In this document: positions 9,567 through 26,190 of the stretch, one piece after another | Layout: the number at the start of each line of letters is the position of its first letter | How positions within the stretch are numbered: position 1 is the first letter of the stretch | Assembly: GCF_041886205.1 (NCBI RefSeq) | Contig: NZ_CP169030.1 | Length of the DNA: 64,000 bases | Source: Escherichia coli | GTDB lineage: Bacteria > Pseudomonadota > Gammaproteobacteria > Enterobacterales > Enterobacteriaceae | Direction: 5' to 3' (one strand) | Made by a program: the position numbers and the translations under genes | Notes under the pieces: model-generated | Seen by the model: the letters and a program-made list of their open reading frames with translations, nothing else | The model's database searches: none | What the model was told of the DNA's origin: nothing

Positions 9567-9604
9567 GGGGGAACCGCAGAATTCGGAAAAAATCGTACGC
9601 TAAG
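9567..9604. repeat. Left 38-bp terminal inverted repeat of the Tn1721-like transposon
   Basis: GGGGGAACCGCAGAATTCGGAAAAAATCGTACGCTAAG. Confidence 0.8.
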
Positions 9605-9755
9605 CTAACGGTGTTCTCGTGACAGCTCTTTGACTAGGCTTTCTAAGGCCATTCTGATAGCCCTGACTTCCTGAAAAGCCATGGCTAAAATTTGTGCGGC
9701 TAAAAGGGATAACCGATGGTAAAGTAAGTTATCCCTGTCGAGATACTGAAAAGCG

Positions 9756-11333
9756 TTATCCTCGTTTTTCCCAAAACTGTTTTGCCAGTTCGCTCAGAGC
9801 GCTAGTTAACTGAGCGACAGATTTCGCACTTTGCAAATTATTCTGCCCGGTCTGTACATTGGTATCAGCAGCATCGCGTATATTGATAATACTGCGGTTT
9901 ATGTCTTCACTTACTGCTCCCTGCTGCTCGACCGCAGTCGCTATTTGCGCGTTCATGTCGGTAATTTCGTTAACGCGTTGGCCAATTCCATCAAGAGCTG
10001 TAGCTGCTTCCTCTGCGTGAGCTACACTCGTGTGCGCTTGCCGACTACTTTGCTCCATGACTGTAACAGCGGATTGCGCTCGCTCTTGTAGAGCGCTGAT
10101 CATGCTTTGAATATCCGTTGTCGATTGCTGTGTGCGAGCAGCAAGACTGCGAACCTCATCGGCGACAACAGCAAAACCACGCCCCTGCTCACCAGCACGC
10201 GCGGCCTCAATTGCTGCGTTGAGTGCCAACAAATTCGTTTGCTCGGCGATCCCTCGTATAACGTCAAGAACTTTTGATATCTCGTTACTTTGACCTTCAA
10301 GCTCATGAATAACCTGAGTGGCTTGCCTAATTTCACCTTCAAGGGCAGTGATTGACTGGCTTGTGTGGGCTACCAGACGCTGGCCAGATGCCGTCTCAGT
10401 GTCTGCTCTTCCGGCCGCATCTGCAGCATGCTGTGCATTGCTCGCAACCTCTTGAATGCTTGCCACCATTTGGTTTACTGCCGTTGCTATTTGATCTGTC
10501 TCTGCCTGCTGCTCAACTGTAAGTACATTGCTTGACTCAATATCCTTTAGTAGGCCTCGGGTGTGTTCGCTAAGCCGATTTGATGCATCACCTATGCGAC
10601 CTACTATGGCGCCTGTTTCAGCTTGCATCATTCGTAAAGCAAACTCTATTTGGCCAAACTCATCGGTGCGCCCAGTGTAGAGGGATTGACTTAATGGGTT
10701 ATTGGAAATATTCTTGGCTCTTTCAACCAGTCTTCCAAGAGGAGAGAGAATAGCCAAAACACTAACAGAGCTTAAGCTTCCTGACATTAAAGTGGCTAAC
10801 AATAAGCTGCTTATTGATGTATCAGTAAGCATGCCGGCAGCCATTGCGCTTGATATAATACTACCCCATATGAGCAAGAGTATTTTCACGGAAAAGCTAG
10901 CAGCCAATTTCGGCCTCGCGGCCTTCCCGCTTCTCAATTGAGCATATAATTTTTCCGCAGCCAAAACCTGCTCAGGTTCAGGCTTGGTCCTTACAGACTG
11001 GTATTCAACAATCGAACCATTCTTAGCTATTGGCGTTACATAAGCACTTACCCAATAGTGGTCGCCATTTTTACAGCGATTTTTTACTAGCCCCATCCAT
11101 GAGCGGCCAGATTTTAATGTACTCCACATATGCTCAAATGCAGCAGGCGGCATATCTGGGTGTCTTACGATGTTGTGAGGCTGGCCTAATAGTTCTTCCT
11201 CAGTGAAACCACTGATTTTAATGAAGTCAGGATTAACGTACGTGATATGGCTTTGAGGGGAGGTAGTCGAAAGAATATTGGCATCTTTTGGGAGTTCTAA
11301 GTTTCGACCCGTCACTGGTAAATTCTGGCGCAT
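9756..11333 (-). CDS. Methyl-accepting chemotaxis protein-like protein with PAS domain (Tn1721 orfI-type cargo)
   Basis: 525 aa; N-terminal PAS-like region, central TM segments, C-terminal MCP signalling domain ([31 protein letters not shown]). Confidence 0.8.
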
Positions 11334-11620
11334 AAGAACCTCAAGGGTTGGCTGTTTTATTTTATTGTTTTCGGCATTAAGCCCAATTTCTTGAGCGTTA
11401 CGATAAAGCTAGCATGGAAACGATAGGTGCAAGCAAGTTAAGGGTTGCATCGCGCATGTCAATCTAGGCTATACCCTAACTTGATGTCAGGCAGGGCCGC
11501 GCCGCTTCGTCAGAATAGAGTCTGCTTTCCCATTTTTTGACACATGCCCGCGAAGGTTATAGATTTCAGCCTGACAGAAATGGGCTTTGAGGCACAACGG
11601 AACAGAAAGTGCACTTAAGC

Positions 11621-11625
11621 CGCCT
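11621..11625. repeat. 5-bp target-site duplication (CGCCT) flanking IRt of the integron
   Basis: CGCCT immediately outside IRt; the same pentamer lies immediately outside the second IRi at 22464-22468. Confidence 0.6.
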
Positions 11626-11650
11626 TGTCATTTTCAGAAGACGACTGCAC
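11626..11650. repeat. IRt (25-bp terminal inverted repeat at tni end of Tn402-like integron)
   Basis: TGTCATTTTCAGAAGACGACTGCAC. Confidence 0.8.
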
Positions 11651-11766
11651 CAGTTGATTGGGCGTAATGGCTGTTGTGCAGCCAGCTCCTGACAGTTCAA
11701 TATCAGAAGTGATCTGCACCAATCTCGACTATGCTCAATACTCGTGTGCACCAAAGCGAGGTGAGC

Positions 11767-13446
11767 ATGGCGACGGACACCCCACGGATTCCAGAACAAG
11801 GCGTGGCCACTCTGCCTGATGAGGCTTGGGAGCGTGCGCGCCGTCGTGCGGAGATCATCAGTCCGTTGGCGCAGTCGGAGACGGTCGGGCACGAAGCGGC
11901 CGATATGGCGGCTCAGGCGCTGGGCTTGTCTCGGCGCCAGGTATACGTTCTGATCCGGCGTGCCCGGCAAGGCAGCGGCCTCGTGACGGATCTGGTGCCC
12001 GGCCAGTCCGGTGGAGGTAAAGGTAAGGGGCGCTTGCCGGAACCGGTCGAGCGCGTCATCCACGAGCTACTGCAAAAGCGGTTCCTGACCAAGCAGAAGC
12101 GCAGCCTAGCGGCCTTTCACCGCGAAGTCACTCAGGTGTGCAAGGCTCAAAAACTGCGAGTGCCGGCGCGCAATACCGTGGCCTTACGGATCGCTAGCCT
12201 TGACCCGCGCAAGGTCATCCGCCGGCGGGAAGGCCAGGATGCCGCTCGTGACCTACAAGGTGTGGGCGGCGAGCCTCCTGCCGTGACCGCGCCGCTGGAG
12301 CAGGTGCAGATAGACCATACGGTCATCGACCTGATCGTGGTCGATGACCGCGACCGGCAACCTATTGGCCGCCCGTACCTGACCCTCGCCATCGACGTGT
12401 TCACCCGCTGCGTGCTCGGCATGGTCGTCACGCTGGAAGCGCCGTCTGCCGTTTCGGTTGGCCTGTGCCTCGTGCATGTCGCCTGCGACAAGCGCCCTTG
12501 GCTGGAAGGACTGAACGTGGAAATGGATTGGCAGATGAGCGGCAAGCCCTTGCTGCTCTACCTAGACAACGCGGCCGAGTTCAAGAGCGAGGCCCTGCGC
12601 CGGGGTTGCGAGCAGCATGGCATCCGGCTGGACTATCGCCCGCTGGGACAGCCGCACTATGGCGGCATCGTGGAACGGATCATCGGCACGGCGATGCAGA
12701 TGATTCACGACGAACTGCCGGGAACGACCTTCTCCAACCCTGACCAGCGCGGCGACTACGATTCCGAAAACAAGGCCGCCCTGACGCTGCGCGAGCTAGA
12801 GCGCTGGCTCACATTGGCGGTCGGCACCTACCACGGTTCGGTGCACAACGGCCTGCTCCAACCGCCGGCCGCGCGCTGGGCCGAGGCCGTGGCGCGTGTC
12901 GGCGTACCGGCCGTCGTCACACGCGCTACTTCGTTCCTGGTCGATTTTCTGCCGATCCTCCGGCGCACGCTGACCCGCACCGGCTTTGTCATCGACCACA
13001 TCCACTACTACGCCGATGCGCTCAAGCCGTGGATTGCGCGGCGTGAACGCTGGCCGTCCTTTCTGATCCGGCGCGATCCGCGCGACATCAGCCGTATCTG
13101 GGTCCTGGAACCGGAGGGACAGCATTACCTGGAAATTCCCTACCGTACCTTGTCGCATCCGGCTGTCACCCTCTGGGAACAACGGCAGGCGCTGGCGAAA
13201 CTGCGGCAGCAAGGGCGCGAACAGGTGGATGAGTCGGCGCTGTTCCGCATGATCGGCCAGATGCGTGAGATTGTGACCAGCGCGCAGAAGGCCACACGCA
13301 AGGCGCGGCGTGACGCGGATCGCCGCCAGCACCTCAAGACATCAGCTCGGCCGGACAAGCCCGTTCCGCCGGATACGGATATTGCCGACCCGCAGGCAGA
13401 CAACTTGCCACCCGCCAAACCGTTCGACCAGATTGAGGAGTGGTAG
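11767..13446 (+). CDS. tniA: TniA transposase (Tn402/Tn5053 family, DDE)
   Basis: 559 aa starting MATDTPRIPEQG; ORF-track start at 11731 is an upstream in-frame Met. Confidence 0.9.
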   Translation: MATDTPRIPEQGVATLPDEAWERARRRAEIISPLAQSETVGHEAADMAAQALGLSRRQVYVLIRRARQGSGLVTDLVPGQSGGGKGKGRLPEPVERVIHELLQKRFLTKQKRSLAAFHREVTQVCKAQKLRVPARNTVALRIASLDPRKVIRRREGQDAARDLQGVGGEPPAVTAPLEQVQIDHTVIDLIVVDDRDRQPIGRPYLTLAIDVFTRCVLGMVVTLEAPSAVSVGLCLVHVACDKRPWLEGLNVEMDWQMSGKPLLLYLDNAAEFKSEALRRGCEQHGIRLDYRPLGQPHYGGIVERIIGTAMQMIHDELPGTTFSNPDQRGDYDSENKAALTLRELERWLTLAVGTYHGSVHNGLLQPPAARWAEAVARVGVPAVVTRATSFLVDFLPILRRTLTRTGFVIDHIHYYADALKPWIARRERWPSFLIRRDPRDISRIWVLEPEGQHYLEIPYRTLSHPAVTLWEQRQALAKLRQQGREQVDESALFRMIGQMREIVTSAQKATRKARRDADRRQHLKTSARPDKPVPPDTDIADPQADNLPPAKPFDQIEEW

Positions 13447-13448
13447 CC

Positions 13449-14357
13449 GTGGACGAATATCCCATCATCGACCTGTCCCACCTGCTGCCGGCGGCCCAGG
13501 GCTTGGCCCGTCTTCCGGCGGACGAGCGCATCCAGCGCCTTCGCGCCGACCGCTGGATCGGCTATCCGCGCGCAGTCGAGGCGCTGAACCGGCTGGAAGC
13601 CCTTTATGCGTGGCCAAACAAGCAACGCATGCCCAACCTGCTGCTGGTTGGCCCGACCAACAATGGCAAGTCGATGATCGTCGAGAAGTTCCGCCGCACC
13701 CACCCGGCCAGCTCCGACGCCGACCAGGAGCACATCCCGGTGTTGGTCGTGCAGATGCCGTCCGAGCCGTCCGTGATCCGCTTCTACGTCGCGCTGCTCG
13801 CCGCGATGGGCGCGCCGCTGCGCCCACGCCCACGGTTGCCGGAAATGGAGCAACTGGCTCTGGCACTGCTGCGCAAGGTCGGCGTGCGCATGCTGGTGAT
13901 CGACGAGCTGCACAACGTGCTGGCCGGCAACAGCGTCAACCGCCGGGAATTCCTCAACCTGCTGCGCTTCCTCGGCAACGAACTGCGCATCCCGTTGGTT
14001 GGGGTAGGCACGCGCGACGCCTACCTAGCCATCCGCTCCGATGACCAGTTGGAAAATCGCTTCGAGCCGATGATGCTGCCGGTATGGGAGGCCAACGACG
14101 ATTGCTGCTCACTGCTGGCCAGCTTCGCCGCTTCGCTCCCGCTGCGCCGGCCTTCCCCAATTGCCACGCTGGACATGGCTCGCTACCTGCTCACACGCAG
14201 CGAGGGCACCATAGGGGAACTGGCGCACTTGCTGATGGCGGCGGCCATCGTCGCCGTGGAGAGCGGCGAGGAAGCGATCAACCATCGCACACTCAGCATG
14301 GCCGTTTACACCGGACCCAGCGAGCGGCGGCGGCAATTCGAGCGGGAACTGATGTGA
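13449..14357 (+). CDS. tniB: TniB NTP-binding transposition protein
   Basis: Walker A VGPTNNGKS, probable GTG start at 13449 giving MDEYPIIDL. Confidence 0.85.
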   Translation: MDEYPIIDLSHLLPAAQGLARLPADERIQRLRADRWIGYPRAVEALNRLEALYAWPNKQRMPNLLLVGPTNNGKSMIVEKFRRTHPASSDADQEHIPVLVVQMPSEPSVIRFYVALLAAMGAPLRPRPRLPEMEQLALALLRKVGVRMLVIDELHNVLAGNSVNRREFLNLLRFLGNELRIPLVGVGTRDAYLAIRSDDQLENRFEPMMLPVWEANDDCCSLLASFAASLPLRRPSPIATLDMARYLLTRSEGTIGELAHLLMAAAIVAVESGEEAINHRTLSMAVYTGPSERRRQFERELM

Positions 14358-15571
14358 AGCCTGCGCCGCGCTGGCCGCTGCATCCCGCCCCGAAAGAAGG
14401 CGAGGCGCTGTCCTCATGGCTCAACCGCGTGGCCCTTTGCTATCACATGGAGGAGCCCGACCTGCTGGAGCACGATCTTGGTCACGGCCAGGTCGATGAC
14501 CTGGACACCGCGCCACCACTCTCGCTGCTGGCGTTGCTTTCCCAGCGGAGCGGCATCGAGCTGGACCGGCTGCGCTGTATGAGTTTCGCCGGATGGGTGC
14601 CTTGGCTACTGGACAGCCTTGATGACCAGATTCCAGACGCCTTGGAAACCTATGCGTTTCAGCTCTCGGTGTTGCTGCCAAGACTCCGCCGTAAGACGCG
14701 ATCCATCACGAGCTGGCGTGCCTGGCTGCCCAGCCAGCCGATAAACCGCGCCTGTCCGCTCTGCCTGAGCGATCCGGAGAACCAAGCCGTACTGCTCGCG
14801 TGGAAGCTGCCCCTGATGCTGAGCTGCCCGCTGCATGGCTGCTGGCTGGAATCCTATTGGGGCGTGCCAGGGCGGTTTCTCGGCTGGGAGAACGCCGACG
14901 CCGAACCGCGCACCGCCAGCGACGCGATTGCGGCGATGGACCAGCGTACCTGGCAGGCACTGACAACCGGTCACGTGGAGCTGCCGCGCCGACGCATCCA
15001 CGCCGGATTGTGGTTTCGACTTCTTCGCACGCTGCTCGATGAGCTGAACACCCCGCTTTCCGCGTGCGGAACCTGCGCGGGGTATCCCCGCCAAGTCTGG
15101 GAAGGCTGCGGGCATCCGCTGCGTGCTGGGCAAAGTCTGTGGCGACCGTATGAAACCCTGAATCCGATAGTACGGTTACAGATGCTGGAGGCGGCGGCAA
15201 CGGCAATCAGCTTGATTGAGGTGAGGGACATCAGCCCGCCAGGCGAGCAGGCAAAGCTATTCTGGTCCGAGCCCCAAACCGGGTTCACCAGTGGCCTGCC
15301 GACGAAAGCGCCGAAGCCCGAGCCCATCAATCACTGGCAGCGTGCAGTCCAGGCCATCGACGAGGCCATCATTGAAGCGCGACACAACCCCGAGACGGCA
15401 CGCTCGCTGTTCGCGTTGGCTTCCTATGGTCGGCGCGATCCCGCTTCCTTGGAACGGTTGCGCGCCACCTTCGTGAAGGAAGGCATCCCGCCGGAATTTC
15501 TGTCACATTACCTGCCTGATGCACCCTTTGCATGTCTTAAACAAAATGACGGGTTAAGTGACAAATTTTGA
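14354..15571 (+). CDS. tniQ: TniQ transposition protein
   Basis: 405-aa frame starting at GTG overlapping tniB stop (VKPAPRWPLHPAPKEGEALSSWLNR); the ORF-track entry 14084-15571 is an upstream extension of this frame. Confidence 0.8.
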   Translation: MKPAPRWPLHPAPKEGEALSSWLNRVALCYHMEEPDLLEHDLGHGQVDDLDTAPPLSLLALLSQRSGIELDRLRCMSFAGWVPWLLDSLDDQIPDALETYAFQLSVLLPRLRRKTRSITSWRAWLPSQPINRACPLCLSDPENQAVLLAWKLPLMLSCPLHGCWLESYWGVPGRFLGWENADAEPRTASDAIAAMDQRTWQALTTGHVELPRRRIHAGLWFRLLRTLLDELNTPLSACGTCAGYPRQVWEGCGHPLRAGQSLWRPYETLNPIVRLQMLEAAATAISLIEVRDISPPGEQAKLFWSEPQTGFTSGLPTKAPKPEPINHWQRAVQAIDEAIIEARHNPETARSLFALASYGRRDPASLERLRATFVKEGIPPEFLSHYLPDAPFACLKQNDGLSDKF

Positions 15572-15617
15572 CGGATAGAGCTTTCCGGCTCACACTGTCA
15601 CATAATCGAACGTATAC

Positions 15618-16256
15618 GTGACGGGTGAAAAGGTGCTGATCGGCTACATGCGGGTATCGAAGGCGGACGGATCCCAGTCCACCAATTTGCAACGCGATGC
15701 GCTCATCGCCGCTGGTGTGAGCCTTGCGCACCTTTACGAGGATCTGGCCTCGGGCAGGCGCGATGATCGCCCAGGGTTGGCTGCTTGCCTGAAGGCGCTT
15801 CGTGAAGGGGACACGCTGATCGTGTGGAAGCTCGATCGGCTTGGCCGTGATCTGCGCCACCTGATCAACACCGTGCACGACCTAACTGCGCGTAGCGTGG
15901 GCCTGAAGGTCCTGACCGGTCACGGTGCGGCGGTCGACACGACGACTGCCGCCGGCAAGCTTGTGTTCGGTATTTTTGCCGCGCTGGCCGAGTTCGAGCG
16001 TGAGTTGATTTCCGAGCGAACAGTCGCTGGACTTATCTCGGCGCGCGCTCGCGGCAGGAAAGGGGGGCGCCCCTTCAAGATGACCGCCGCCAAGCTACGC
16101 CTGGCGATGGCCAGCATGGGGCAACCGGAAACCAAGGTGGGCGATCTCTGCGAAGAACTCGGGATTACCCGGCAGACGCTCTACCGGCACGTGTCGCCCA
16201 AGGGCGAACTGCGGCCAGACGGCGTAAAGCTGCTCTCCCTCGGTTCAGCCGCATAA
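15618..16256 (+). CDS. tniR: TniR/TniC serine resolvase of Tn402-like element
   Basis: Serine recombinase motifs (IGYMRVSKADGSQ; C-terminal HTH); exact start uncertain. Confidence 0.8.
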   Translation: MTGEKVLIGYMRVSKADGSQSTNLQRDALIAAGVSLAHLYEDLASGRRDDRPGLAACLKALREGDTLIVWKLDRLGRDLRHLINTVHDLTARSVGLKVLTGHGAAVDTTTAAGKLVFGIFAALAEFERELISERTVAGLISARARGRKGGRPFKMTAAKLRLAMASMGQPETKVGDLCEELGITRQTLYRHVSPKGELRPDGVKLLSLGSAA

Positions 16257-16353
16257 ATGGAGGCGACCTGGAACGGGGCGCTGTTCAGTGCGGCAACGAT
16301 CCGATTACCGGTGTCGACCCAGAGCAGCCGTAGAGCTTTTGGGAAAGCTGTCG

Positions 16354-16448
16354 TTCAACGTTTGACGTGAGGGGCCGCCGTAGCGGCGAAGCCGCGAAGG
16401 GAACCCGCAAGCGCAGCTTGTGGGCGGTCCCTCTCGACGGAATGGTTA
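16354..16448 (-). other. Probable attC recombination site of the qac gene cassette
   Basis: Minus-strand inverse core ATCTAAC (plus 16441-16448) and core GTTGAAC (plus 16354-16360) bracket ~95 bp downstream of the qac stop; boundaries approximate. Confidence 0.4.
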
Positions 16449-16460
16449 GATGCGACCGTT

Positions 16461-16793
16461 TTAGTGAACACTTGCCTTAGATAGCAAGTTGAGCACAGCA
16501 ACGCCGCTGATAATGAAGCCGACACCAACAAATCCCCACATATCTAGTTTTTGACCATGCAAAACCCATGCAATCGCAGTGACCAAGACGATCCCGAGGC
16601 CCGACCAAACTGCGTAGGCGATTCCAACAGGAATCGATTTGAGTGTCAGCGACAGGAAATAAAAAGCAGCAGCGTATCCCGCTACGACGATAAAAGACGG
16701 TACTAACCTAGTAAAGCCCTCACTAGACTTGAGCGCAGAGGTTGCAATGACCTCAAAAATAATGGCCGTAGCCAGAAATAACCAATTTTTCAA
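16461..16793 (-). CDS. Small multidrug resistance (SMR) quaternary ammonium compound efflux protein, qacH/qacL-type gene cassette
   Basis: 110-aa frame [27 protein letters not shown]... with probable TTG start; the ORF-track entry 16461-17102 is an artefactual upstream extension through attI1. Confidence 0.75.
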
Positions 16794-16888
16794 AATATTT
16801 CTCCATGGAGTTCCGCGAAGAAATTTTAGGTTCGATTTAAGAAAAAAAACAGTCTTGTTGCTGGCCGAAATTTGTGCGCACAGCAAAG

Positions 16889-16965
16889 CATCTAACTTTG
16901 TTTTAGGGCGACTGCCCTGCTGCGTAACATCGTTGCTGCTCCATAACATCAAACATCGACCCACG
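16889..16965. other. attI1 site (copy 1) with cassette junction GTTAGATGC on minus strand
   Basis: Sequence CCCTAAAACAAAGTTAGATGC (minus strand) directly upstream of intI1; boundaries approximate. Confidence 0.6.
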
Positions 16966-17031
16966 GCGTAACGCGCTTGCTGCTTGGATGCCCGAGGCAT
17001 AGACTGTACAAAAAAACAGTCATAACAAGCC

Positions 17032-18045
17032 ATGAAAACCGCCACTGCGCCGTTACCACCGCTGCGTTCGGTCAAGGTTCTGGACCAGTTGCGTGAGCGC
17101 ATACGCTACTTGCATTACAGTTTACGAACCGAACAGGCTTATGTCCACTGGGTTCGTGCCTTCATCCGTTTCCACGGTGTGCGTCACCCGGCAACCTTGG
17201 GCAGCAGCGAAGTCGAGGCATTTCTGTCCTGGCTGGCGAACGAGCGCAAGGTTTCGGTCTCCACGCATCGTCAGGCATTGGCGGCCTTGCTGTTCTTCTA
17301 CGGCAAGGTGCTGTGCACGGATCTGCCCTGGCTTCAGGAGATCGGAAGACCTCGGCCGTCGCGGCGCTTGCCGGTGGTGCTGACCCCGGATGAAGTGGTT
17401 CGCATCCTCGGTTTTCTGGAAGGCGAGCATCGTTTGTTCGCCCAGCTTCTGTATGGAACGGGCATGCGGATCAGTGAGGGTTTGCAACTGCGGGTCAAGG
17501 ATCTGGATTTCGATCACGGCACGATCATCGTGCGGGAGGGCAAGGGCTCCAAGGATCGGGCCTTGATGTTACCCGAGAGCTTGGCACCCAGCCTGCGCGA
17601 GCAGCTGTCGCGTGCACGGGCATGGTGGCTGAAGGACCAGGCCGAGGGCCGCAGCGGCGTTGCGCTTCCCGACGCCCTTGAGCGGAAGTATCCGCGCGCC
17701 GGGCATTCCTGGCCGTGGTTCTGGGTTTTTGCGCAGCACACGCATTCGACCGATCCACGGAGCGGTGTCGTGCGTCGCCATCACATGTATGACCAGACCT
17801 TTCAGCGCGCCTTCAAACGTGCCGTAGAACAAGCAGGCATCACGAAGCCCGCCACACCGCACACCCTCCGCCACTCGTTCGCGACGGCCTTGCTCCGCAG
17901 CGGTTACGACATTCGAACCGTGCAGGATCTGCTCGGCCATTCCGACGTCTCTACGACGATGATTTACACGCATGTGCTGAAAGTTGGCGGTGCCGGAGTG
18001 CGCTCACCGCTTGATGCGCTGCCGCCCCTCACTAGTGAGAGGTAG
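17032..18045 (+). CDS. intI1: Class 1 integron integrase IntI1 (copy 1)
   Basis: 337-aa tyrosine recombinase [49 protein letters not shown]... Confidence 0.95.
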
Positions 18046-18222
18046 GGCAGCGCAAGTCAATCCTGGCGGATTCACTACCCCTGCGCGAAGGCCATCGGTG
18101 CCGCATCGAACGGCCGGTTGCGGAAAGTCCTCCCTGCGTCCGCTGATGGCCGGCAGCAGCCCGTCGTTGCCTGATGGATCCAACCCCTCCGCTGCTATAG
18201 TGCAGTCGGCTTCTGACGTTCA

Positions 18223-18247
18223 GTGCAGCCGTCTTCTGAAAACGACA
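18223..18247. repeat. IRi (25-bp inverted repeat at intI1 end), copy 1, internal
   Basis: GTGCAGCCGTCTTCTGAAAACGACA; followed by TTTGA rather than the CGCCT seen outside IRt. Confidence 0.8.
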
Positions 18248-18329
18248 TTTGAACCGGGAACCTTCCCTTTTTGGCTAGGCGTGAAACAATGGTCATTTTC
18301 CCTATACCCAAAATGACCAGGAGGCCCGC

Positions 18330-18428
18330 ATGAAAGTCGCACGCATCTACCTGCGCGTGAGCACGGAGGAACAAGACCTAAGCCGGCAGGATGCCATCGT
18401 GGAGAGCTTAAATAAGACCGTCCCGTAA
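18330..18428 (+). pseudogene. Serine recombinase (resolvase) N-terminal fragment, truncated after ~27 codons by the 88-bp repeat
   Basis: MKVARIYLRVSTEEQDLSRQDAIVES matches the catalytic-serine N-terminus of resolvases; frame then runs into repeat sequence and stops. Confidence 0.5.
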
Positions 18429-18495
18429 ATTTCAGCCGAATCCGACAAAAAGGCGTGAAGATTTCCTTTAAATAGAGAGACCGAAGGTCATCCTT
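18408..18495. repeat. 88-bp direct repeat, copy A, flanking the tet(M) segment
   Basis: TTAAATAAGACCGTCCCGTAAATTTCAGCCGAATCCGACAAAAAGGCGTGAAGATTTCCTTTAAATAGAGAGACCGAAGGTCATCCTT, identical at 20999-21086. Confidence 0.85.
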
Positions 18496-18648
18496 TTCCT
18501 AAAAAAGGGGGGGGCCATGGTTCCAAGATGTAAAATCGAGGGCTAATTCAGGCTATACTTGAACTATCCTTAATGGAATCTTTAGCCAGCGGTATCAACG
18601 AAGCAAGAAACATCGAAGACTAATTAAAAGAATCCATACATAACGGAA

Positions 18649-18693
18649 AGAGCCGATAAAATGAGATTGTATTAATCTCATTTTATCGGCTCT
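18649..18693. terminator. Long perfect hairpin (19-bp stem) at the 3' end of the small ORF downstream of tet(M)
   Basis: AGAGCCGATAAAATGAGATT-gtat-TAATCTCATTTTATCGGCTCT. Confidence 0.45.
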
Positions 18694-18850
18694 GCGTCTT
18701 TGCGTCTGGCTCTGTAATCGCAGTTACTTTGAACTGCTTTATTTCAATTAAATTTTCTTGTCTGCATTTCGGACAATAGAGGGGGAATTTTTTTAATTCA
18801 GTATCTTCCCTTATCTTTAATCGTGTTTTATTTCCACATACAGGACACAA
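18683..18850 (-). CDS. Small Cys-rich zinc-ribbon-like protein (~55 aa), Tn916 orf6-like, downstream of tet(M)
   Basis: Minus-strand frame CPVCGNKTRLKIREDTELKKFPLYCPKCRQENLIEIKQFKVTAITEPDAKTQSR with TTG/GTG start; below ORF-track length cutoff. Confidence 0.4.
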   Translation of the reverse strand: MCPVCGNKTRLKIREDTELKKFPLYCPKCRQENLIEIKQFKVTAITEPDAKTQSR

Positions 18851-18968
18851 TATCCACTTGTAGTTTATAATAACTATCTCCTCCTTTACACTTTAATTCA
18901 AATCTTTATTAAAAAATATTTCATCTTATTTAACAAGAAACCATATTTATATAACAACATAAAATACA

Positions 18969-20888
18969 CTAAGTTATTTTATTGAACATATATCGTACTT
19001 TATCTATCCGACTATTTGGACGACGGGGCTGGCAAACAGGTTCACCGGTAGTAACATGGTACCCTTTTAACTCTGTTAAACAAACACTACGTCCATTTGT
19101 AAAGAAAGTTAAATCACTACGATATTCTTGAATACACCGAGCAGGGATTTCTCCACTAAGAATGACCTCATTATTTTTCAATTGAGTGTCTACGATGTTC
19201 GCACAATATTTAGGAGCATCGTTGTATGCTCGTGAAAGATATTCCTGTGGCGCATAAATTTTAAAACTAAGATATGGCTCTAACAATTCTGTTCCAGCTT
19301 TTTTTAAGACTTGTTCCAATACAATAGGAGCAAGCATCCGAAAATCTGCTGGGGTACTAACAGGGCTATAGTATAAGCCATACTTAAAACAGATTTTACA
19401 GTCCGTCACATTCCAACCATACAATCCTTGTTCACAGCCATAGCGTATCCCTTCCATAACTGCATTTTGAAATGATTGATTTAAGTATCCAAGAGAAACC
19501 GAGCTCTCATACTGCATTCCACTTCCCAACGGAAGCGGTGATACAGATAAACCAATGGAAGCCCAGAAAGGATTTGGCGGCACTTCGATGTGAATGGTAT
19601 ATTCTGCATTTTTTAACGGTCTCTCCATATAAATGACTGTAGGCTCTTTTAGTTCTATCTCCACATGATACTTTTCTTGCAACAGTGCACTAATCACTTC
19701 CATTTGTACTTTCCCTAAGAAAGAAAGTATAATTTCATGTGTCGTAGAATCCACGTAATATCGTAGAAGCGGATCACTATCTGAGATTTCCAAAAGGGCA
19801 TCAAGCAACATTTCTCTCTGTTCAGGTTTACTCGGTTCAACAGTTGTTTGTAGTAGAGGGTGCGGATTTTCAATCTTTTTTCTCTGTGGCAATAGTTTTG
19901 TATCTCCAAGAACACTATTTAACTTCAAAAACTCATTTTGCAAAATAACAATTTCCCCGGAATAAGCCTTATCGATTTTACATAATTCACCATTTATTGA
20001 AGTATACATTTCTGTAATTTTTATTTTTTCCTTTTCCGATATTCTAACCGAATCTCGCAAATGCAGTACGCCACTATAAAGACGTATATATGCAAGACGT
20101 TGTCTTTTTTTTGTATATTCAATTTTGAAAACATTTCCGCAAAGTTCAGACTGACCTCGATGTGTTGATGAATAAAATTTATTCGTAATCACTTCTATAA
20201 GGTTATCAATCCCTATATTGTTTTTTGCACTTCCATGATAAAGAGGGAACAGAGAACAATTCTGAAATCTTATGCTTTCCTCTTGTTCGAGTTCCAATGC
20301 TTCTAATGATTTACCGGACATATATTTCTCTAAAAGGTCATCGTTTCCCTCTATTACCGTATCCCATTGTTCAGATTCGGTAAAGTTCGTCACACACATA
20401 TTAGGATACAGTTCTACCTTCTGTTTGATTACAATTTCGGCAGAAAGTTTCTCTTTAATATCCTGATAAACCGTTGATAAATCAATTCCATTTTGGTCAA
20501 TCTTATTGATAAAAAAGATTGTGGGAATCCCCATTTTCCTAAGTGCATGAAATAATATACGAGTTTGTGCTTGTACGCCATCTTTTGCAGAAATCAGTAG
20601 AATTGCCCCATCTAAAACTGATAATGAACGATATACTTCTGCTAAGAAATCCATATGTCCTGGCGTGTCTATGATGTTCACCTTCGTATTTTCCCACTGA
20701 AAAGAGGTTATTCCTGTCTGAATTGTAATTCCTCTCTGACGTTCTAAAAGCGTATTATCCGTCCTCGTTGTACCTTTGTCCACGCTTCCTAATTCTGTAA
20801 TCGCTCCACTGTTATATAATAAGCTTTCTGTTAAGGTAGTTTTTCCCGCATCAACATGAGCTAAAACTCCAATATTAATAATTTTCAT
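18969..20888 (-). CDS. tet(M): Tetracycline resistance ribosomal protection protein Tet(M)
   Basis: 639 aa starting [30 protein letters not shown] (translational GTPase motifs); the ORF-track frame begins 5 codons upstream. Confidence 0.95.
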
Positions 20889-20903
20889 GTGATTTTCCTC
20901 CAT

Positions 20904-20990
20904 TCAAAAGCCCAAAAGGGCATAAAAATCCCAGTGATAAATACTCTTATCACTGGGATTTTTATGCATAACCATAGGCATACAAAGCAT
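20904..20990 (-). CDS. tet(M) leader peptide (28 aa) of the transcriptional attenuator
   Basis: MLCMPMVMHKNPSDKSIYHWDFYALLGF immediately upstream of tet(M), as in Tn916. Confidence 0.7.
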   Translation of the reverse strand: MLCMPMVMHKNPSDKSIYHWDFYALLGF

Positions 20991-20998
20991 ACAGATAT

Positions 20999-21086
20999 TT
21001 AAATAAGACCGTCCCGTAAATTTCAGCCGAATCCGACAAAAAGGCGTGAAGATTTCCTTTAAATAGAGAGACCGAAGGTCATCCTT
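20999..21086. repeat. 88-bp direct repeat, copy B, flanking the tet(M) segment
   Basis: Identical to 18408-18495, same orientation. Confidence 0.85.
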
Positions 21087-21134
21087 GAAGAAGGAGTCCT
21101 CGGTGAGATTCAGAATGCCGAACACCGTCACCCT
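21087..21134 (-). pseudogene. sul1: sul1 5' fragment (codons ~2-17 only), joined on one side to the 88-bp repeat and on the other to truncated attI1
   Basis: Minus strand reads (V)TVFGILNLTEDSFF, the N-terminus of Sul1 dihydropteroate synthase, lacking its ATG and everything after codon ~17. Confidence 0.7.
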
Positions 21135-21200
21135 GCTGCGTAACATCGTTGCTGCTCCATAACATCAAACATCGACCCACGGCGTAACGCGCTTGCTGCT
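21133..21200. other. attI1 (copy 2), truncated: lacks the GTTAGATGC crossover end
   Basis: Sequence identical to copy 1 from CCCTGCTGCGTAACATCG onward, but the cassette-proximal ~25 bp are replaced by the sul1 fragment. Confidence 0.6.
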
Positions 21201-21247
21201 TGGATGCCCGAGGCATAGACTGTACAAAAAAACAGTCATAACAAGCC

Positions 21248-22261
21248 ATGAAAACCGCCACTGCGCCGTTACCACCGCTGCGTTCGGTCAAGGTTCTGGA
21301 CCAGTTGCGTGAGCGCATACGCTACTTGCATTACAGCTTACGAACCGAACAGGCTTATGTCCACTGGGTTCGTGCCTTCATCCGTTTCCACGGTGTGCGT
21401 CACCCGGCAACCTTGGGCAGCAGCGAAGTCGAGGCATTTCTGTCCTGGCTGGCGAACGAGCGCAAGGTTTCGGTCTCCACGCATCGTCAGGCATTGGCGG
21501 CCTTGCTGTTCTTCTACGGCAAGGTGCTGTGCACGGATCTGCCCTGGCTTCAGGAGATCGGAAGACCTCGGCCGTCGCGGCGCTTGCCGGTGGTGCTGAC
21601 CCCGGATGAAGTGGTTCGCATCCTCGGTTTTCTGGAAGGCGAGCATCGTTTGTTCGCCCAGCTTCTGTATGGAACGGGCATGCGGATCAGTGAGGGTTTG
21701 CAACTGCGGGTCAAGGATCTGGATTTCGATCACGGCACGATCATCGTGCGGGAGGGCAAGGGCTCCAAGGATCGGGCCTTGATGTTACCCGAGAGCTTGG
21801 CACCCAGCCTGCGCGAGCAGCTGTCGCGTGCACGGGCATGGTGGCTGAAGGACCAGGCCGAGGGCCGCAGCGGCGTTGCGCTTCCCGACGCCCTTGAGCG
21901 GAAGTATCCGCGCGCCGGGCATTCCTGGCCGTGGTTCTGGGTTTTTGCGCAGCACACGCATTCGACCGATCCACGGAGCGGTGTCGTGCGTCGCCATCAC
22001 ATGTATGACCAGACCTTTCAGCGCGCCTTCAAACGTGCCGTAGAACAAGCAGGCATCACGAAGCCCGCCACACCGCACACCCTCCGCCACTCGTTCGCGA
22101 CGGCCTTGCTCCGCAGCGGTTACGACATTCGAACCGTGCAGGATCTGCTCGGCCATTCCGACGTCTCTACGACGATGATTTACACGCATGTGCTGAAAGT
22201 TGGCGGTGCCGGAGTGCGCTCACCGCTTGATGCGCTGCCGCCCCTCACTAGTGAGAGGTAG
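21248..22261 (+). CDS. intI1: Class 1 integron integrase IntI1 (copy 2, identical protein)
   Basis: Identical 337-aa translation to copy 1; one silent nucleotide difference noted. Confidence 0.95.
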
Positions 22262-22438
22262 GGCAGCGCAAGTCAATCCTGGCGGATTCACTACCCCTGC
22301 GCGAAGGCCATCGGTGCCGCATCGAACGGCCGGTTGCGGAAAGTCCTCCCTGCGTCCGCTGATGGCCGGCAGCAGCCCGTCGTTGCCTGATGGATCCAAC
22401 CCCTCCGCTGCTATAGTGCAGTCGGCTTCTGACGTTCA

Positions 22439-22463
22439 GTGCAGCCGTCTTCTGAAAACGACA
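22439..22463. repeat. IRi, copy 2 (outer end of integron), followed by CGCCT target duplication
   Basis: GTGCAGCCGTCTTCTGAAAACGACA then CGCCT at 22464-22468. Confidence 0.8.
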
Positions 22464-22485
22464 CGCCTTCAACCAAGGAGACATC

Positions 22486-23046
22486 GTGCAGGGGCACCGC
22501 ATCGGCTACGTCCGGGTCAGCAGCTTTGACCAGAACCCGGAACGCCAGCTGGAACAAACCCAGGTGAGCAAGGTGTTCACCGACAAGGCATCGGGCAAGG
22601 ACACCCAGCGCCCCCAGCTCGAAGCGCTGCTGAGCTTCGTCCGCGAAGGCGATACAGTGGTGGTGCACAGCATGGATCGGCTGGCCCGCAACCTCGATGA
22701 CCTGCGTCGCTTGGTACAGAAGCTGACTCAGCGCGGCGTGCGCATCGAGTTCCTGAAGGAGGGCCTGGTGTTCACTGGCGAGGACTCGCCGATGGCCAAC
22801 CTGATGCTGTCGGTGATGGGGGCCTTCGCTGAGTTCGAGCGCGCCCTGATCCGCGAGCGGCAGCGTGAGGGCATCGCCTTGGCCAAGCAGCGTGGCGCGT
22901 ACCGGGGCCGCAAGAAAGCCCTGTCCGATGAGCAGGCTGCTACCCTGCGGCAGCGAGCGACGGCCGGCGAGCCCAAGGCGCAGCTTGCCCGCGAGTTCAA
23001 CATCAGCCGGGAAACCCTCTACCAGTACCTCCGCACGGACGACTGA
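22486..23046 (+). CDS. tnpR: TnpR resolvase (Tn21/Tn1721 subfamily)
   Basis: 186-aa serine recombinase MQGHRIGYVRVSSFDQNPERQ... Confidence 0.9.
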   Translation: MQGHRIGYVRVSSFDQNPERQLEQTQVSKVFTDKASGKDTQRPQLEALLSFVREGDTVVVHSMDRLARNLDDLRRLVQKLTQRGVRIEFLKEGLVFTGEDSPMANLMLSVMGAFAEFERALIRERQREGIALAKQRGAYRGRKKALSDEQAATLRQRATAGEPKAQLAREFNISRETLYQYLRTDD

Positions 23047-23049
23047 CAC

Positions 23050-26016
23050 ATGCCGCGTCGCTTGATCCTCTCGGCCACGGAGCGGGACACCCTGCTTGCG
23101 CTGCCGGAAAGCCAGGATGACCTGATCCGCTACTACACCTTCAACGACTCCGACCTGTCGCTGATCCGCCAGCGACGCGGCGACGCCAACCGCCTCGGCT
23201 TCGCCGTGCAGCTCTGCCTGCTGCGCTACCCCGGTTACGCGCTGGGAACCGACAGCGAGCTGCCCGAGCCGGTCATCCTGTGGGTGGCGAAGCAAGTCCA
23301 GGCCGAGCCGGCGAGCTGGGCAAAGTACGGCGAGCGCGACGTGACCCGTCGCGAGCATGCCCAGGAACTGCGCACCTACCTGCAACTGGCCCCGTTCGGC
23401 CTGTCCGACTTCCGCGCCCTGGTGCGCGAGCTAACCGAGCTGGCCCAGCAGACCGACAAAGGCTTGCTGCTGGCCGGTCAGGCCCTGGAGAGCCTACGGC
23501 AGAAACGACGCATCCTGCCGGCGCTGAGCGTGATTGACCGGGCCTGCTCGGAAGCCATTGCGCGAGCCAATCGGCGGGTCTACCGCGCCCTGGTCGAACC
23601 ACTCACGGACTCGCATCGGGCCAAGCTGGACGAGCTGTTGAAGCTCAAGGCCGGCAGCAGCATCACCTGGTTGACCTGGCTGCGCCAGGCACCGCTGAAA
23701 CCCAACTCTCGGCACATGCTGGAACACATCGAGCGGCTGAAGACATTTCAGTTGGTGGACTTGCCCGAAGGCCTGGGCCGGCACATCCACCAGAACCGCC
23801 TGCTCAAGCTGGCCCGCGAGGGTGGGCAGATGACGCCCAAAGACCTCGGTAAGTTCGAGCCGCAGCGCCGCTACGCGACCCTGGCCGCCGTGGTGCTGGA
23901 GAGCACCGCGACCGTGATCGATGAGCTGGTCGATCTGCATGACCGCATCCTGGTCAAGCTGTTCAGCGGCGCGAAGCACAAGCATCAGCAGCAGTTCCAG
24001 AAGCAGGGCAAGGCGATCAACGACAAGGTGCGCCTGTACTCCAGGATCGGCCAGGCGCTGCTGGAAGCGAAGGAAAGCGGCAGCGACCCCTATGCCGCCA
24101 TCGAGGCGGTGATTCCCTGGGACGAGTTCACCGAGAGCGTCAGCGAGGCCGAGCTGCTGGCCCGGCCGGAAGGCTTCGACCACCTGCACCTGGTCGGCGA
24201 GAACTTCGCCACCCTGCGCCGTTACACGCCGGCCTTGCTGGAGGTGCTGGAACTGCGCGCCGCGCCGGCCGCGCAAGGCGTGCTGGCAGCCGTGCAGACC
24301 CTGCGTGAGATGAACGCCGACAACCTGCGCAAGGTGCCGGCCGATGCACCCACGGCCTTCATCAAGCCGCGCTGGAAGCCGCTGGTGATCACCCCGGAAG
24401 GCCTCGACCGGAAATTCTACGAAATCTGCGCCCTGTCCGAGCTGAAGAACGCCCTGCGCTCCGGCGACATCTGGGTCAAGGGCTCGCGGCAGTTCCGCGA
24501 CTTCGACGACTACCTGCTGCCGGCCGAGAAGTTCGCCGCACTCAAGCGCGAGCAGGCCCTGCCCCTGGCGATCAACCCGAACAGCGACCAGTACCTGGAA
24601 GAGCGTTTGCAGCTGCTGGACGAGCAGTTGGCCACCGTCACCCGCCTGGCCAAGGACAACGAGCTGCCCGATGCCATCCTCACCGAGTCAGGGCTGAAAA
24701 TCACCCCGCTGGATGCGGCGGTGCCGGATCGGGCGCAGGCGCTGATCGACCAAACCAGCCAGTTACTGCCGCGCATCAAGATCACCGAACTGCTGATGGA
24801 CGTGGACGACTGGACGGGCTTCAGCCGCCACTTCACCCACTTGAAGGACGGGGCCGAGGCCAAAGACAGGACGTTGCTGCTGTCCGCAATCCTCGGTGAT
24901 GCGATCAACCTCGGGCTGACCAAGATGGCCGAGTCGAGCCCCGGCCTGACCTACGCCAAGCTGTCCTGGCTGCAAGCCTGGCACATCCGCGACGAAACCT
25001 ATTCGGCGGCCTTGGCCGAGCTGGTCAACCACCAGTATCGCCACGCCTTTGCCGCCCACTGGGGCGACGGCACGACCTCATCCTCCGATGGCCAGCGCTT
25101 CCGCGCGGGTGGCCGGGGCGAGAGCACCGGGCACGTCAACCCGAAGTACGGTAGCGAGCCGGGACGGCTGTTCTATACCCATATCTCCGACCAGTACGCG
25201 CCGTTCAGCACCCGCGTGGTGAATGTCGGCGTCCGCGATTCCACCTATGTGCTCGACGGCCTGCTGTACCACGAGTCCGACCTGCGGATCGAGGAGCACT
25301 ACACCGACACGGCCGGCTTCACCGATCACGTCTTTGCCCTGATGCACCTGCTAGGCTTCCGCTTCGCGCCGCGCATCCGCGACCTCGGCGAAACCAAGCT
25401 GTACGTGCCGCAGGGCGTGCAAGCCTACCCGACGTTGCGCCCGCTGATCGGCGGCACCCTGAACATCAAGCACGTGCGTGCCCACTGGGACGACATCCTG
25501 CGCCTGGCCAGCTCGATCAAGCAGGGCACCGTCACCGCCTCGCTGATGCTGCGCAAGCTCGGCAGCTACCCGCGCCAGAACGGACTGGCCGTGGCCCTGC
25601 GCGAGCTGGGCCGGATCGAGCGCACGCTGTTCATCCTGGACTGGCTGCAAAGTGTTGAACTGCGCCGCCGCGTGCATGCCGGCCTGAACAAAGGTGAGGC
25701 GCGCAACTCGCTGGCCAGGGCGGTGTTCTTCAACCGCCTTGGGGAAATCAGGGATCGGAGCTTCGAGCAGCAGCGCTACCGGGCCAGCGGCCTCAACCTG
25801 GTGACGGCGGCTATCGTGCTGTGGAACACGGTGTACCTGGAACGCGCCACCCAGGGGTTGGTCGAGGCCGGCAAGCCGGTGGACGGCGAGCTGCTGCAAT
25901 TCCTGTCGCCGCTGGGCTGGGAGCACATCAACCTAACCGGCGATTACGTCTGGCGGCAGAGCCGCAGACTGGAAGACGGGAAGTTTCGGCCCTTACGGAT
26001 GCCCGGAAAACCTTAG
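23050..26016 (+). CDS. tnpA: TnpA transposase (Tn3 family, Tn21/Tn1721 subfamily)
   Basis: 988-aa ORF ending inside the terminal inverted repeat. Confidence 0.9.
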
Positions 26017-26049
26017 CGTACGATTTTTTCCGAATTCTGCGGGCTCCCC
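26012..26049. repeat. Right 38-bp terminal inverted repeat of the Tn1721-like transposon
   Basis: Reverse complement reads GGGGAGCCCGCAGAATTCGGAAAAAATCGTACGCTAAG. Confidence 0.8.
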
Positions 26050-26190
26050 TTGTTTGTACGATTCGATATCGATACTGCGTAATGGCCGGTACTTCCCTGT
26101 ACCCAGCTTAAGATTATTACGCCAGACATCATCCCCATTAAGATTGATATGCTCCCAGCCCAACGGCGAAAGGTGAGTGCAGTTGGTCAT
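26050..26190 (-). pseudogene. 3' remnant of a second Tn3-family tnpA, inverted and abutting the outer end of the transposon IR
   Basis: Minus-strand translation [31 protein letters not shown] parallels the TnpA C-terminus [31 protein letters not shown]. Confidence 0.5.

Follow-up and report, generated by a model that had tools for sequence, protein, structure and literature searches.

The resistance gene tet(M) in the 64,000-nt stretch of Escherichia coli DNA analysed here (contig NZ_CP169030.1, assembly GCF_041886205.1; the window) lies between two direct repeats that are probably the complete (153 bp) and the truncated (88 bp) end of an ISCR/IS91-family element. The gene would have been captured as a cargo module between such ends and would have entered the 5′ conserved segment (5′-CS) of a class 1 integron by homologous recombination, the repeats now being relics of these events.

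Extent and distribution of the repeats

Exact direct repeats of 88 bp occupy positions 18408–18495 and 20999–21086, 2591 bp apart from start to start, as a preliminary description of this DNA had claimed. Within 64 kb, chance cannot account for an exact match of 88 nt, and the pair is not fortuitous. The GC content is 0.31–0.41 across about 18500–21000 and 0.60–0.66 on either side. This profile and the annotation of identical public records agree with the earlier reading of the enclosed DNA as a low-GC, Tn916-type tet(M) with its leader peptide and a small open reading frame (ORF). The outer flanks are likewise unlike each other, as had been stated: the start of a parA-type resolvase gene on the left and a 5′ piece of sul1 on the right. 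The length of 88 bp given for the repeats is correct for the right copy but not for the left, which runs on to 18560 as a discrete 153-bp unit (18408–18560). The 65 bp on the 3′ side of the left 88-bp repeat are not Tn916 sequence, and homology to Tn916 begins only at 18561. Since the left copy is a 153-bp unit, the right repeat corresponds to the first 88 bp of that unit, cut and joined to sul1. The preliminary description saw the 88-bp repeats but overlooked a larger direct repeat of 1,333 bp, with one mismatch, that encloses the whole segment and consists of the integron 5′-CS (intI1 and IRi; 16915–18247 and 21131–22463). The features between the two 5′-CS copies are as follows.

18248–18407, + strand: IRi-adjacent sequence and parA-type start (sequence read)
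18330–18407, + strand: first 26 codons of a parA-type resolvase gene, severed after ...GAGAGC
18408–18560, + strand: complete 153-bp oriIS-side terminal unit (TTAAATAAGACC...GGGCTAATTCAGGCTATACTT), 100% identical to the element ends in contigs L007, L010 and L025–L032
18408–18495, + strand: direct-repeat copy 1, the first 88 bp of the 153-bp unit
18561–20998, − strand: Tn916-derived fragment, 98–99% identical to Tn916-type sequences over exactly that span
18561–18623, + strand: last 63 bp of orf9, within the Tn916 fragment
18683–18850, − strand: KTR ORF, 55 aa, annotated so in identical public records
18969–20903, − strand: tet(M), annotated so in identical public records
20904–20990, − strand: tet(M) leader peptide, 28 aa, annotated so in identical public records
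20920–20967: attenuator hairpin, an inverted repeat found in the window (I3)
20999–21086, + strand: direct-repeat copy 2, the first 88 bp of the unit, ending ...GGTCATCCTT and joined to sul1 codon 16
21087–21131, − strand: sul1 codons 2–16, in frame with the start of a short attI1 ORF; junction ambiguous by 1–3 nt
20904–21146, − strand: chimeric 80-codon ORF (ORF list and translation)

Eighteen PLSDB plasmids, of E. coli and Salmonella, and 8 complete RefSeq genomes of E. coli carry both 88-bp copies, and in 17 of the PLSDB plasmids the 5,549-bp arrangement is entire, at 99.9–100% identity. The window matches plasmid NZ_AP024116.1 of E. coli JML285 at 100% over 22 kb. In one E. coli plasmid, NZ_MT499884.1, the match to the 5,549-bp structure ends exactly at 21131, the junction of sul1′ and the 5′-CS, and the second 5′-CS copy is missing or replaced. 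The 153-bp/88-bp sequence is unannotated in every public plasmid with this tet(M) context, and literature searches found no description of this context or of the source ISCR.

The source element

The unit is contiguous and 99–100% identical in the Acinetobacter baumannii plasmid pABF9692 and in many environmental contigs. A 22-mer taken from it matched contigs of metagenome-assembled genomes (MAGs) assigned to Bacteriovorax, Bacteriovoracaceae, Oligoflexia, Flavobacterium and Saprospiraceae, often in several copies per contig. In the environmental contigs the boundaries of the unit, (T)TAAATAAGACC...GGCTATACTT, are constant in differing flanks, and metagenome contigs often break inside it, as is expected of a repeat. 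In contigs L006, L007, L010 and L025–L033 the unit begins 45 bp past the stop codon of a 462-aa ORF (1723–3111 of L007) and ends an element of 1,790 bp. This element (1519–3308 of L007) is 100% identical to the copy in L010, between unlike flanks. Its left end (CCATTCG...) and right end (...GGCTATACTT) have no inverted-repeat relation, in keeping with the two unlike ends of an ISCR/IS91 element. The 462-aa product matched Pfam Y2_Tnp (3.5e-30) and Zn_Tnp_IS91 (5.8e-18), as an HUH Y2 transposase does, and is 38% identical to the ISCR2 transposase. Among NCBIfam models the best match was ISCR_clade_Ia (8.5e-90, 302 bits against a curated cut-off of 925), and transpos_IS91 (1.7e-33) was also below its cut-off. 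CTATAC is shared by the termini of the unit (GGGCTAATTCAGGCTATACTT), of ISCR2 (GGGCGTTTATTCTTCCTATACG) and of ISCR1 (GGTGGTTTATACTTCCTATACCC). The position after the transposase gene and this short terminal motif identify the unit as the oriIS-side end of an ISCR/IS91-family element, which bears out the earlier idea of the repeat as a mobile-element end.

The element appears unnamed. Relatives of its transposase at 45–95% identity, from Bacteriovorax, Halobacteriovorax and Oligoflexia, are labelled just "transposase" or "hypothetical protein", and PLSDB contained no protein more than 39% identical to it. The exact transposase occurs in 350 blocks of public assemblies, including contigs of 0.8 and 1.3 Mb and a 3.77-Mb chromosome. 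Judged by sequence, the element would be a new ISCR lineage of environmental Oligoflexia, Bacteriovoracaceae and Bacteroidota; it belongs to an established class of elements and does not make up a novel type of system. Diverged subfamilies of the unit, at 85–92% identity, occur in L009 (376–479 and 2262–2361) and L003 (1284–1395 and 2628–2715); their 3′ halves differ or are internally deleted, and their ends are related (...GGGTTAATTCGGCTTATCCT, ...GGTTAATTCGGGCCAGTCTT). Diverged subfamilies with related end motifs suggest several related ISCR lineages, each with its own end.

The outer end of every unit copy reads ...CTATA-CTT-N (...CTATACTT), with N variable, and no flanking duplication was seen, there being no empty site for comparison. 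The inner (left) limit of the unit within the full element lies inside the hairpin CGGTCTT-AAAT-AAGACCG. Solo units begin (T)TAAAT, and the preceding base is C in 13 of the 15 distinct flanks at the first loci. Folding of the 3′ region of the element was no stabler than that of shuffled sequences on either strand (z −0.46 and −0.69), and only local hairpins stood out. Translated in frame 1 of the + strand, the sole frame translated, the unit contains three stop codons, so it does not encode a transposase in that frame as an IS26-type unit would. An Rfam scan of 18200–21300 returned no family for the unit, giving only a sub-threshold Enterococcus sRNA in the tet(M) leader region and an attI site. 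By eye the unit contains no RYYYAAC/GTTRRRY pair, and Rfam matched only the truncated attI1 region, below the gathering score. An integron attC was considered and rejected: the unit starts TTAAAT, which fits TTRRRY, but the base in front of it is other than G, an inverse core is missing and the gene constantly found beside it encodes a Y2 transposase. An IS110/bridge-RNA origin, suggested by the CT before the unit, was discarded after the IS91-type gene turned up.

Cargo-plus-unit arrays in the natural hosts

On the 3′ side of the full element, arrays were found in which the element with its unit is followed by cargo, unit, cargo and unit, all in direct orientation and with 100% identical units. 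A cargo beginning GGCTGCTATA follows a solo unit in L028 and directly follows the full element in L029. The cargo that opens with TCGGTAAGTT is preceded by the full element in L025 and L010 but by solo units in L026 and L028; for a third, opening with CTACGTCGCC, a solo unit stands in front in L031 and the full element in L032. Across L025–L034, L003 and L008, the number and order of the modules vary in the manner of integron cassettes. Cargo proteins above the curated NCBIfam cut-offs include Tet(X) and Tet(Y), a pump of the CmlA/FloR family and a phosphotransferase of the Mph(E)/Mph(G) family; proteins resembling AadA, Lnu(H), Dfr, CPT and Sat scored below them.

One of the arrays concerns tet(X). 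In L006 and L005 the full element and its unit are followed by fabF, a hypothetical gene, tet(X), rteC′ and another unit; tet(X) thus stands between two units just 3′ of the full element (L005 1–3593 and L006; bins Flavobacterium and Saprospiraceae). In pABF9692 an intact 153-bp unit lies between truncated rteC-like and truncated nitroreductase genes, near tet(X)-estT, and it is the right-hand remnant of this tet(X) module. The same tet(X) segment is present in pABF9692 (L001 2898–6152, 96.6% identity), where it begins 2–3 bp after the oriIS end of ISCR2 and retains the right 153-bp unit. Since it starts at the ISCR2 end yet keeps the unit, sequential capture of tet(X) by two different ISCRs is suggested. 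Separately, L031 carries at 10853–12900 a sul1 that is 99.8% identical to the standard sul1-orf5 region, with upstream sequence that is neither qacEdelta1 nor attI1. This sul1 was called as an ORF with a 24-aa N-terminal extension, beside a tniQ-like gene and about 4 kb from the ISCR-like element.

A further reading of the arrays is tentative and rather doubtful: the 153-bp unit may be a minimal non-autonomous working end, with the transposase cutting at the terminus and at the internal hairpin 150 bp away, and in this way reshuffling cassette-like cargo-plus-unit modules and moving antibiotic resistance genes across phyla. If this were true, tet(M) from Bacillota and tet(X) from Bacteroidota would have been carried through predatory Bacteriovoracaceae/Oligoflexia to enterobacterial and Acinetobacter plasmids, and the enterobacterial tet(M) module would be re-mobilisable by a transposase supplied in trans.

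Proposed capture of tet(M) and entry into the integron

In ISCRs, variable resistance genes sit on the oriIS side (PMC6218425). IS91-family transposases start at oriIS and stop at terIS, and termination fails in 1–14% of events, which gives one-ended transposition; the family uses CTTG/GTTC-type tetranucleotides and forms circular intermediates (PMC13181058). A Tn916 fragment that spans the 3′ end of orf9, tet(M), the leader peptide and the 8 bp preceding the leader may, by one-ended rolling-circle transposition and/or recombination between units, have become one cargo module with a unit on each side. A 2,591-bp circle made of one unit and the Tn916 fragment is plausible as a past intermediate. 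The module would have joined a piece of a sul1-fusion class 1 integron lying beside a parA gene, the outcome being a 4,216-bp segment with the order IRi-parA′-unit-tet(M)-unit′-sul1′-attI1′. Homologous recombination would have brought this segment into the 5′-CS of a resident Tn402-like integron, itself within a TnAs1-family transposon, and would have duplicated the 5′-CS. The integron and transposon features concerned are listed below; the 25 bp at 18223–18247 are taken, by their sequence, to be the class 1 IRi.

16915–18247, + strand: class 1 integron 5′-CS copy 1 (1,333-bp direct repeat), holding attI1 and intI1 and ending at IRi
17032–18045, + strand: intI1 (copy 1), annotated in identical records
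17119–17147, − strand: promoter Pc of copy 1, TGGACA-N17-TAAACT, PcH1 (sequence read)
18223–18247: IRi, 25 bp, end of 5′-CS copy 1 (sequence read)
21131–22463, + strand: class 1 integron 5′-CS copy 2, with truncated attI1, ending at IRi (22463)
21248–22261, + strand: intI1 (copy 2)
21335–21363, − strand: Pc of copy 2, TGGACA-N17-TAAGCT, PcW, facing tet(M)
22486–23046, + strand: tnpR of the TnAs1/Tn21-family transposon carrying the resident integron (annotation in L002 and L023)
23050–26016, + strand: tnpA of the TnAs1/Tn21-family transposon (NCBIfam Tn3-family transposase, 1289 bits)

A relative with an empty site was found in pSH111_166, an IncC plasmid of Salmonella (NC_019121.1; L023), which has the same transposon without the 4,216 bp and a single 5′-CS with PcH1, in the order MCP-tniABQR-qacG2 cassette-attI1-intI1-IRi-tnpR-tnpA. 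In the window the two 5′-CS copies differ only at 17121 versus 21337, within the −10 hexamer of Pc, the left copy having PcH1 (TAAACT) and the right one PcW (TAAGCT). The PcH1 copy adjoins the cassette, as in pSH111_166, and the PcW copy adjoins sul1′. Moreover, the right 5′-CS together with the attI1-delta::sul1 junction matches the PcW sul1-fusion integron of pPNP1 at 100% identity across 1,377 bp. The different Pc variants show that the 5′-CS copies are of different origin, even if pSH111_166 had lost the segment. On its left side the same structure has other cassette arrays in other plasmids, for example aadA12-lnu(F) in p15-0756.1 or dfrA17-aadA5 in CP051332, which indicates later exchange.

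The junctions of the module were compared with native sequence. Native IncP-type parA reads ...GAGAGC/ACGAAG and the window ...GAGAGC/TTAAAT. The outer end of the left unit meets Tn916 at CAAA/GAACTATCC, inside the 3′ end of orf9, as judged against native Tn916 in pCTN1046, and the CTT at this junction is not native Tn916 sequence. The far end of the Tn916 fragment, natively GATATT/CTCTGG, adjoins the start of the second unit. That unit is cut after GGTCATCCTT, a 10-mer that shares 7 of its 10 positions, the final CTT among them, with the true end GGCTATACTT. The (G/C)TTC tetranucleotide together with this 7/10 "pseudo-ori" match at position 88 is a weak hint, and the junctions in the window are compatible with IS91-type events, among them initiation at a pseudo-origin at position 88. 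A general (G/C)TTC junction rule was dropped: the tetranucleotide is on the displaced strand at both window junctions but was not seen as a general feature of the environmental copies. The Tn916 homology is limited to 18561–20998 (orf9 tail, KTR ORF, tet(M) and leader peptide), a span that includes neither the integrase/excisionase nor the conjugation module of Tn916. The join to the 5′-CS lies within sul1 and not at an attC or attI crossover.

Weighing of the explanations

Several points weigh against capture by an ISCR as proposed above. Transposition of an ISCR element has yet to be demonstrated by experiment (PMC6218425). The hosts assigned to short MAG contigs are unreliable, only the long contigs being firm. 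The 3′ non-coding region of the element aligned to that of ISCR2 with a score of 20, which is not significant against a shuffle mean of 19.5. The hairpin boundary of the solo units does not fit the published terIS and target tetranucleotide rules, and one cleavage rule fitting all unit junctions could not be derived. RecA-dependent recombination between identical 153-bp units could explain all the array variation without a transposase, and pSH111_166 could be a deletion derivative instead of a progenitor. Finally, genome and metagenome scans revealed no Tn916 with a simple unit insertion, for which the junction GGCTATACTT+CTCTGGATAC would be the mark, no parA::module and no circle of 2,591 or 4,216 bp. 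In the same scans the tet(M)-unit junction was not found outside the known plasmids.

The other explanations nevertheless fare worse. A transposase-independent history, in which a Tn916-derived circle with one unit integrated via RecA into a resident 88-bp remnant between parA′ and sul1′, would account for the duplication by a single crossover, the route proposed for unconventional circularizable structures, and identical 153-bp units would have been abundant recombination substrates in the source communities. It is unlikely, given that the predicted parA′-88 bp-sul1′ target is in no record and that an ISCR-type event would still be needed to explain why both natural boundaries of the unit border the Tn916 fragment. 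The existence of solo units with constant ends in many flanks could also be taken to mean that the 153-bp sequence inserted twice as a mini-element resembling a miniature inverted-repeat transposable element (MITE), in orf9 and upstream of the leader, and that the remaining Tn916 was then deleted and the right copy truncated. Such insertions should have left Tn916 on both sides of each unit, but the outer sides here are parA (left unit) and sul1 (right unit); two extra deletions ending exactly at or inside units would be needed, and the scans just mentioned contained no simple insertion in Tn916, which makes this history quite improbable.

Very little probability attaches to a self-contained translocatable unit that is active now, with the 88-bp repeats excising a 2,591-bp tet(M) circle that reinserts in the manner of IS26. 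Exact direct repeats do flank a resistance gene, and cargo-plus-unit modules shift position in the natural hosts. The repeats are, however, non-coding; the window has no IS91-like transposase and PLSDB none above 39% identity; and the 18 PLSDB and 8 RefSeq records all have the parA′/sul1′ context with exactly two copies, without single-copy remnants, tandem amplification or new sites. As to misassembly, the preliminary description had allowed that the 88 bp might belong to a longer element and be duplicated by assembly error. A longer element is indeed involved, and the duplication is genuine. Beyond the general risk that repeats pose to assemblers, nothing speaks for a single 88-bp sequence duplicated in this way, and its chance is negligible: the same structure is in 17–18 independently sequenced complete plasmids and 8 complete RefSeq genomes, and the two copies have unlike neighbours on both sides.

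Present-day mobility

The window contains only the 153-bp and 88-bp end segments of the source element. Searches of the 64 kb by tblastn with the new transposase and that of ISCR2 detected no IS91-like transposase, which a functional ISCR would have. The 26 public records (18 PLSDB and 8 RefSeq E. coli) all had the same context, with no single-copy product, amplified form or other location of the tet(M) unit among them. Since there is no cognate transposase and all public copies have the same context with exactly two copies, the repeats in enterobacterial plasmids are most likely inert footprints. The notion of a translocatable unit is partly right for the origin of the segment, whose architecture is that of the repeat-flanked cargo modules of the natural hosts, and gains no support from these records for its present mobility. 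The repeat itself is non-coding and is neither an insertion sequence nor an IS26-type unit.

Movement by homologous recombination would more likely use the 1,333-bp 5′-CS repeats. An exchange between the 5′-CS copies would release tet(M) on a circle of 4,216 bp. The exact 88-bp pair and the 1,333-bp 5′-CS pair are both direct repeats of the type that defines unconventional circularizable structures, and direct repeats of 88 bp and 1.33 kb make the tet(M) segment liable to RecA-dependent loss, transfer and amplification.

Expression of tet(M)

In Tn916, tet(M) is said, in work of Su, He and Clewell from 1992, to be transcribed from a promoter upstream of the leader peptide under control by attenuation. 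Just 8 bp of Tn916 remain here upstream of the leader-peptide ATG, so the native promoter has been lost. A promoter scan of the 88-bp copy on the tet(M) strand found no sigma-70-like promoter, and the repeat was dropped as a promoter source. tet(M) is located downstream of the PcW of the second 5′-CS copy, and from this arrangement it is probably transcribed from that integron Pc and not from its native attenuated promoter. The leader peptide is also fused in frame to upstream sequence. The 80-codon ORF consists of MLRSR from the start of the short attI1 ORF, which we take to be ORF-11 of Hanau-Bercot et al. 2002, followed by Sul1 residues 2–16, read-through of the 88-bp copy and the 28-aa leader peptide. 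The leader peptide may thus be translated within this ORF from the attI1 translation signal.

Comparison with known systems and significance

The source element resembles ISCR1 and ISCR2 in having variable resistance genes immediately beyond the oriIS end (PMC6218425 for ISCRs). It also shares with them a Y2 HUH transposase with an N-terminal zinc-binding domain, the lack of terminal inverted repeats and a CTATAC-ending oriIS downstream of the gene. It differs in that its transposase is only 38% identical to both and falls below the NCBIfam ISCR cut-off, and in that its 153-bp end occurs as many solo copies with a fixed inner boundary in a hairpin. To our knowledge, such solo terminal segments with a fixed hairpin boundary have not been described for ISCR1 or ISCR2. 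The location of an ISCR-associated resistance gene in a class 1 integron with a duplicated conserved segment recalls the ISCR1 complex class 1 integrons, which Toleman and colleagues in 2006 reportedly modelled as a circular intermediate rescued by homologous recombination. In the present case it is the 5′-CS (intI1-IRi, 1,333 bp) that is duplicated, rather than the 3′-CS, and the ISCR is not ISCR1 and survives only as its end.

The resistance gene armA lies between two sequential, direct oriIS-bearing remnants of ISCR28 in a "sandwich" proposed to be a capture structure (Yuan et al. 2024, as relayed in PMC12772301), and tet(M) shares with it the position between two direct-orientation oriIS copies. 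As far as that source describes the armA structure, it involves another ISCR, whereas tet(M) is flanked on one side by the 153-bp unit alone and on the other by its 88-bp remnant, neither with any transposase sequence. Tn6539 and other IS26-flanked delta-orf13-lp-tet(M) units also place a Tn916-derived tet(M) on livestock enterobacterial plasmids (PMC6340991). IS26 forms their borders, and some of orf13 is retained in them along with the native promoter region; in contrast, Tn916 is cut here 8 bp upstream of the leader peptide, and the bounds are remnants of ISCR ends. Like integron cassettes, the modules of the source element combine cargo with a short conserved repeat, are stacked one way beside an enzyme gene and vary in number and order. 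Here, however, an HUH Y2 transposase takes the place of the tyrosine integrase, by eye the unit lacks paired core sites like those of attC, and the cargo often comprises several genes or gene fragments.

These results provide a concrete route by which the Gram-positive tet(M) of Tn916 would have come onto class 1 integron/Tn21-family platforms in E. coli and Salmonella of food animals. The presumed new ISCR lineage is found beside genes of clinical relevance (tet(X), tet(Y), floR/cmlA-like and mph(E/G)), and sul1 is not far away. The 153-bp footprint, which is also present near tet(X) in an A. baumannii plasmid, can serve as a searchable tracer of transfers from the environmental reservoir.

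The resident platform and the flanks of the module

The resident platform (9567–18247 and 21131–26050) is a Tn402-like integron with tniA, tniB, tniQ and tniR intact, inside the TnAs1/Tn21-family transposon. Its qacG2-type cassette lies at 16461–17102 on the − strand, as an extended ORF, and a PAS-domain chemotaxis gene adjoins the platform. The region of the parA fragment seems to be a mosaic. Positions 18248–18362 stand beside IRi in about 200 plasmids that afterwards diverge, 18356–18407 matches the IncP-type parA of pYKBO007, and the complete 160 bp (18248–18407) is in no PLSDB record apart from the tet(M) plasmids. On the other side, more than 100 other PLSDB plasmids from many genera share the in-frame attI1-delta::sul1 junction; in them sul1 is intact, and Pc may be either variant. 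This fusion, exemplified by pHH2-227 (L021) and pPNP1 (L022), has no cassettes and no qacEdelta1, and it appears to be a widespread integron variant.

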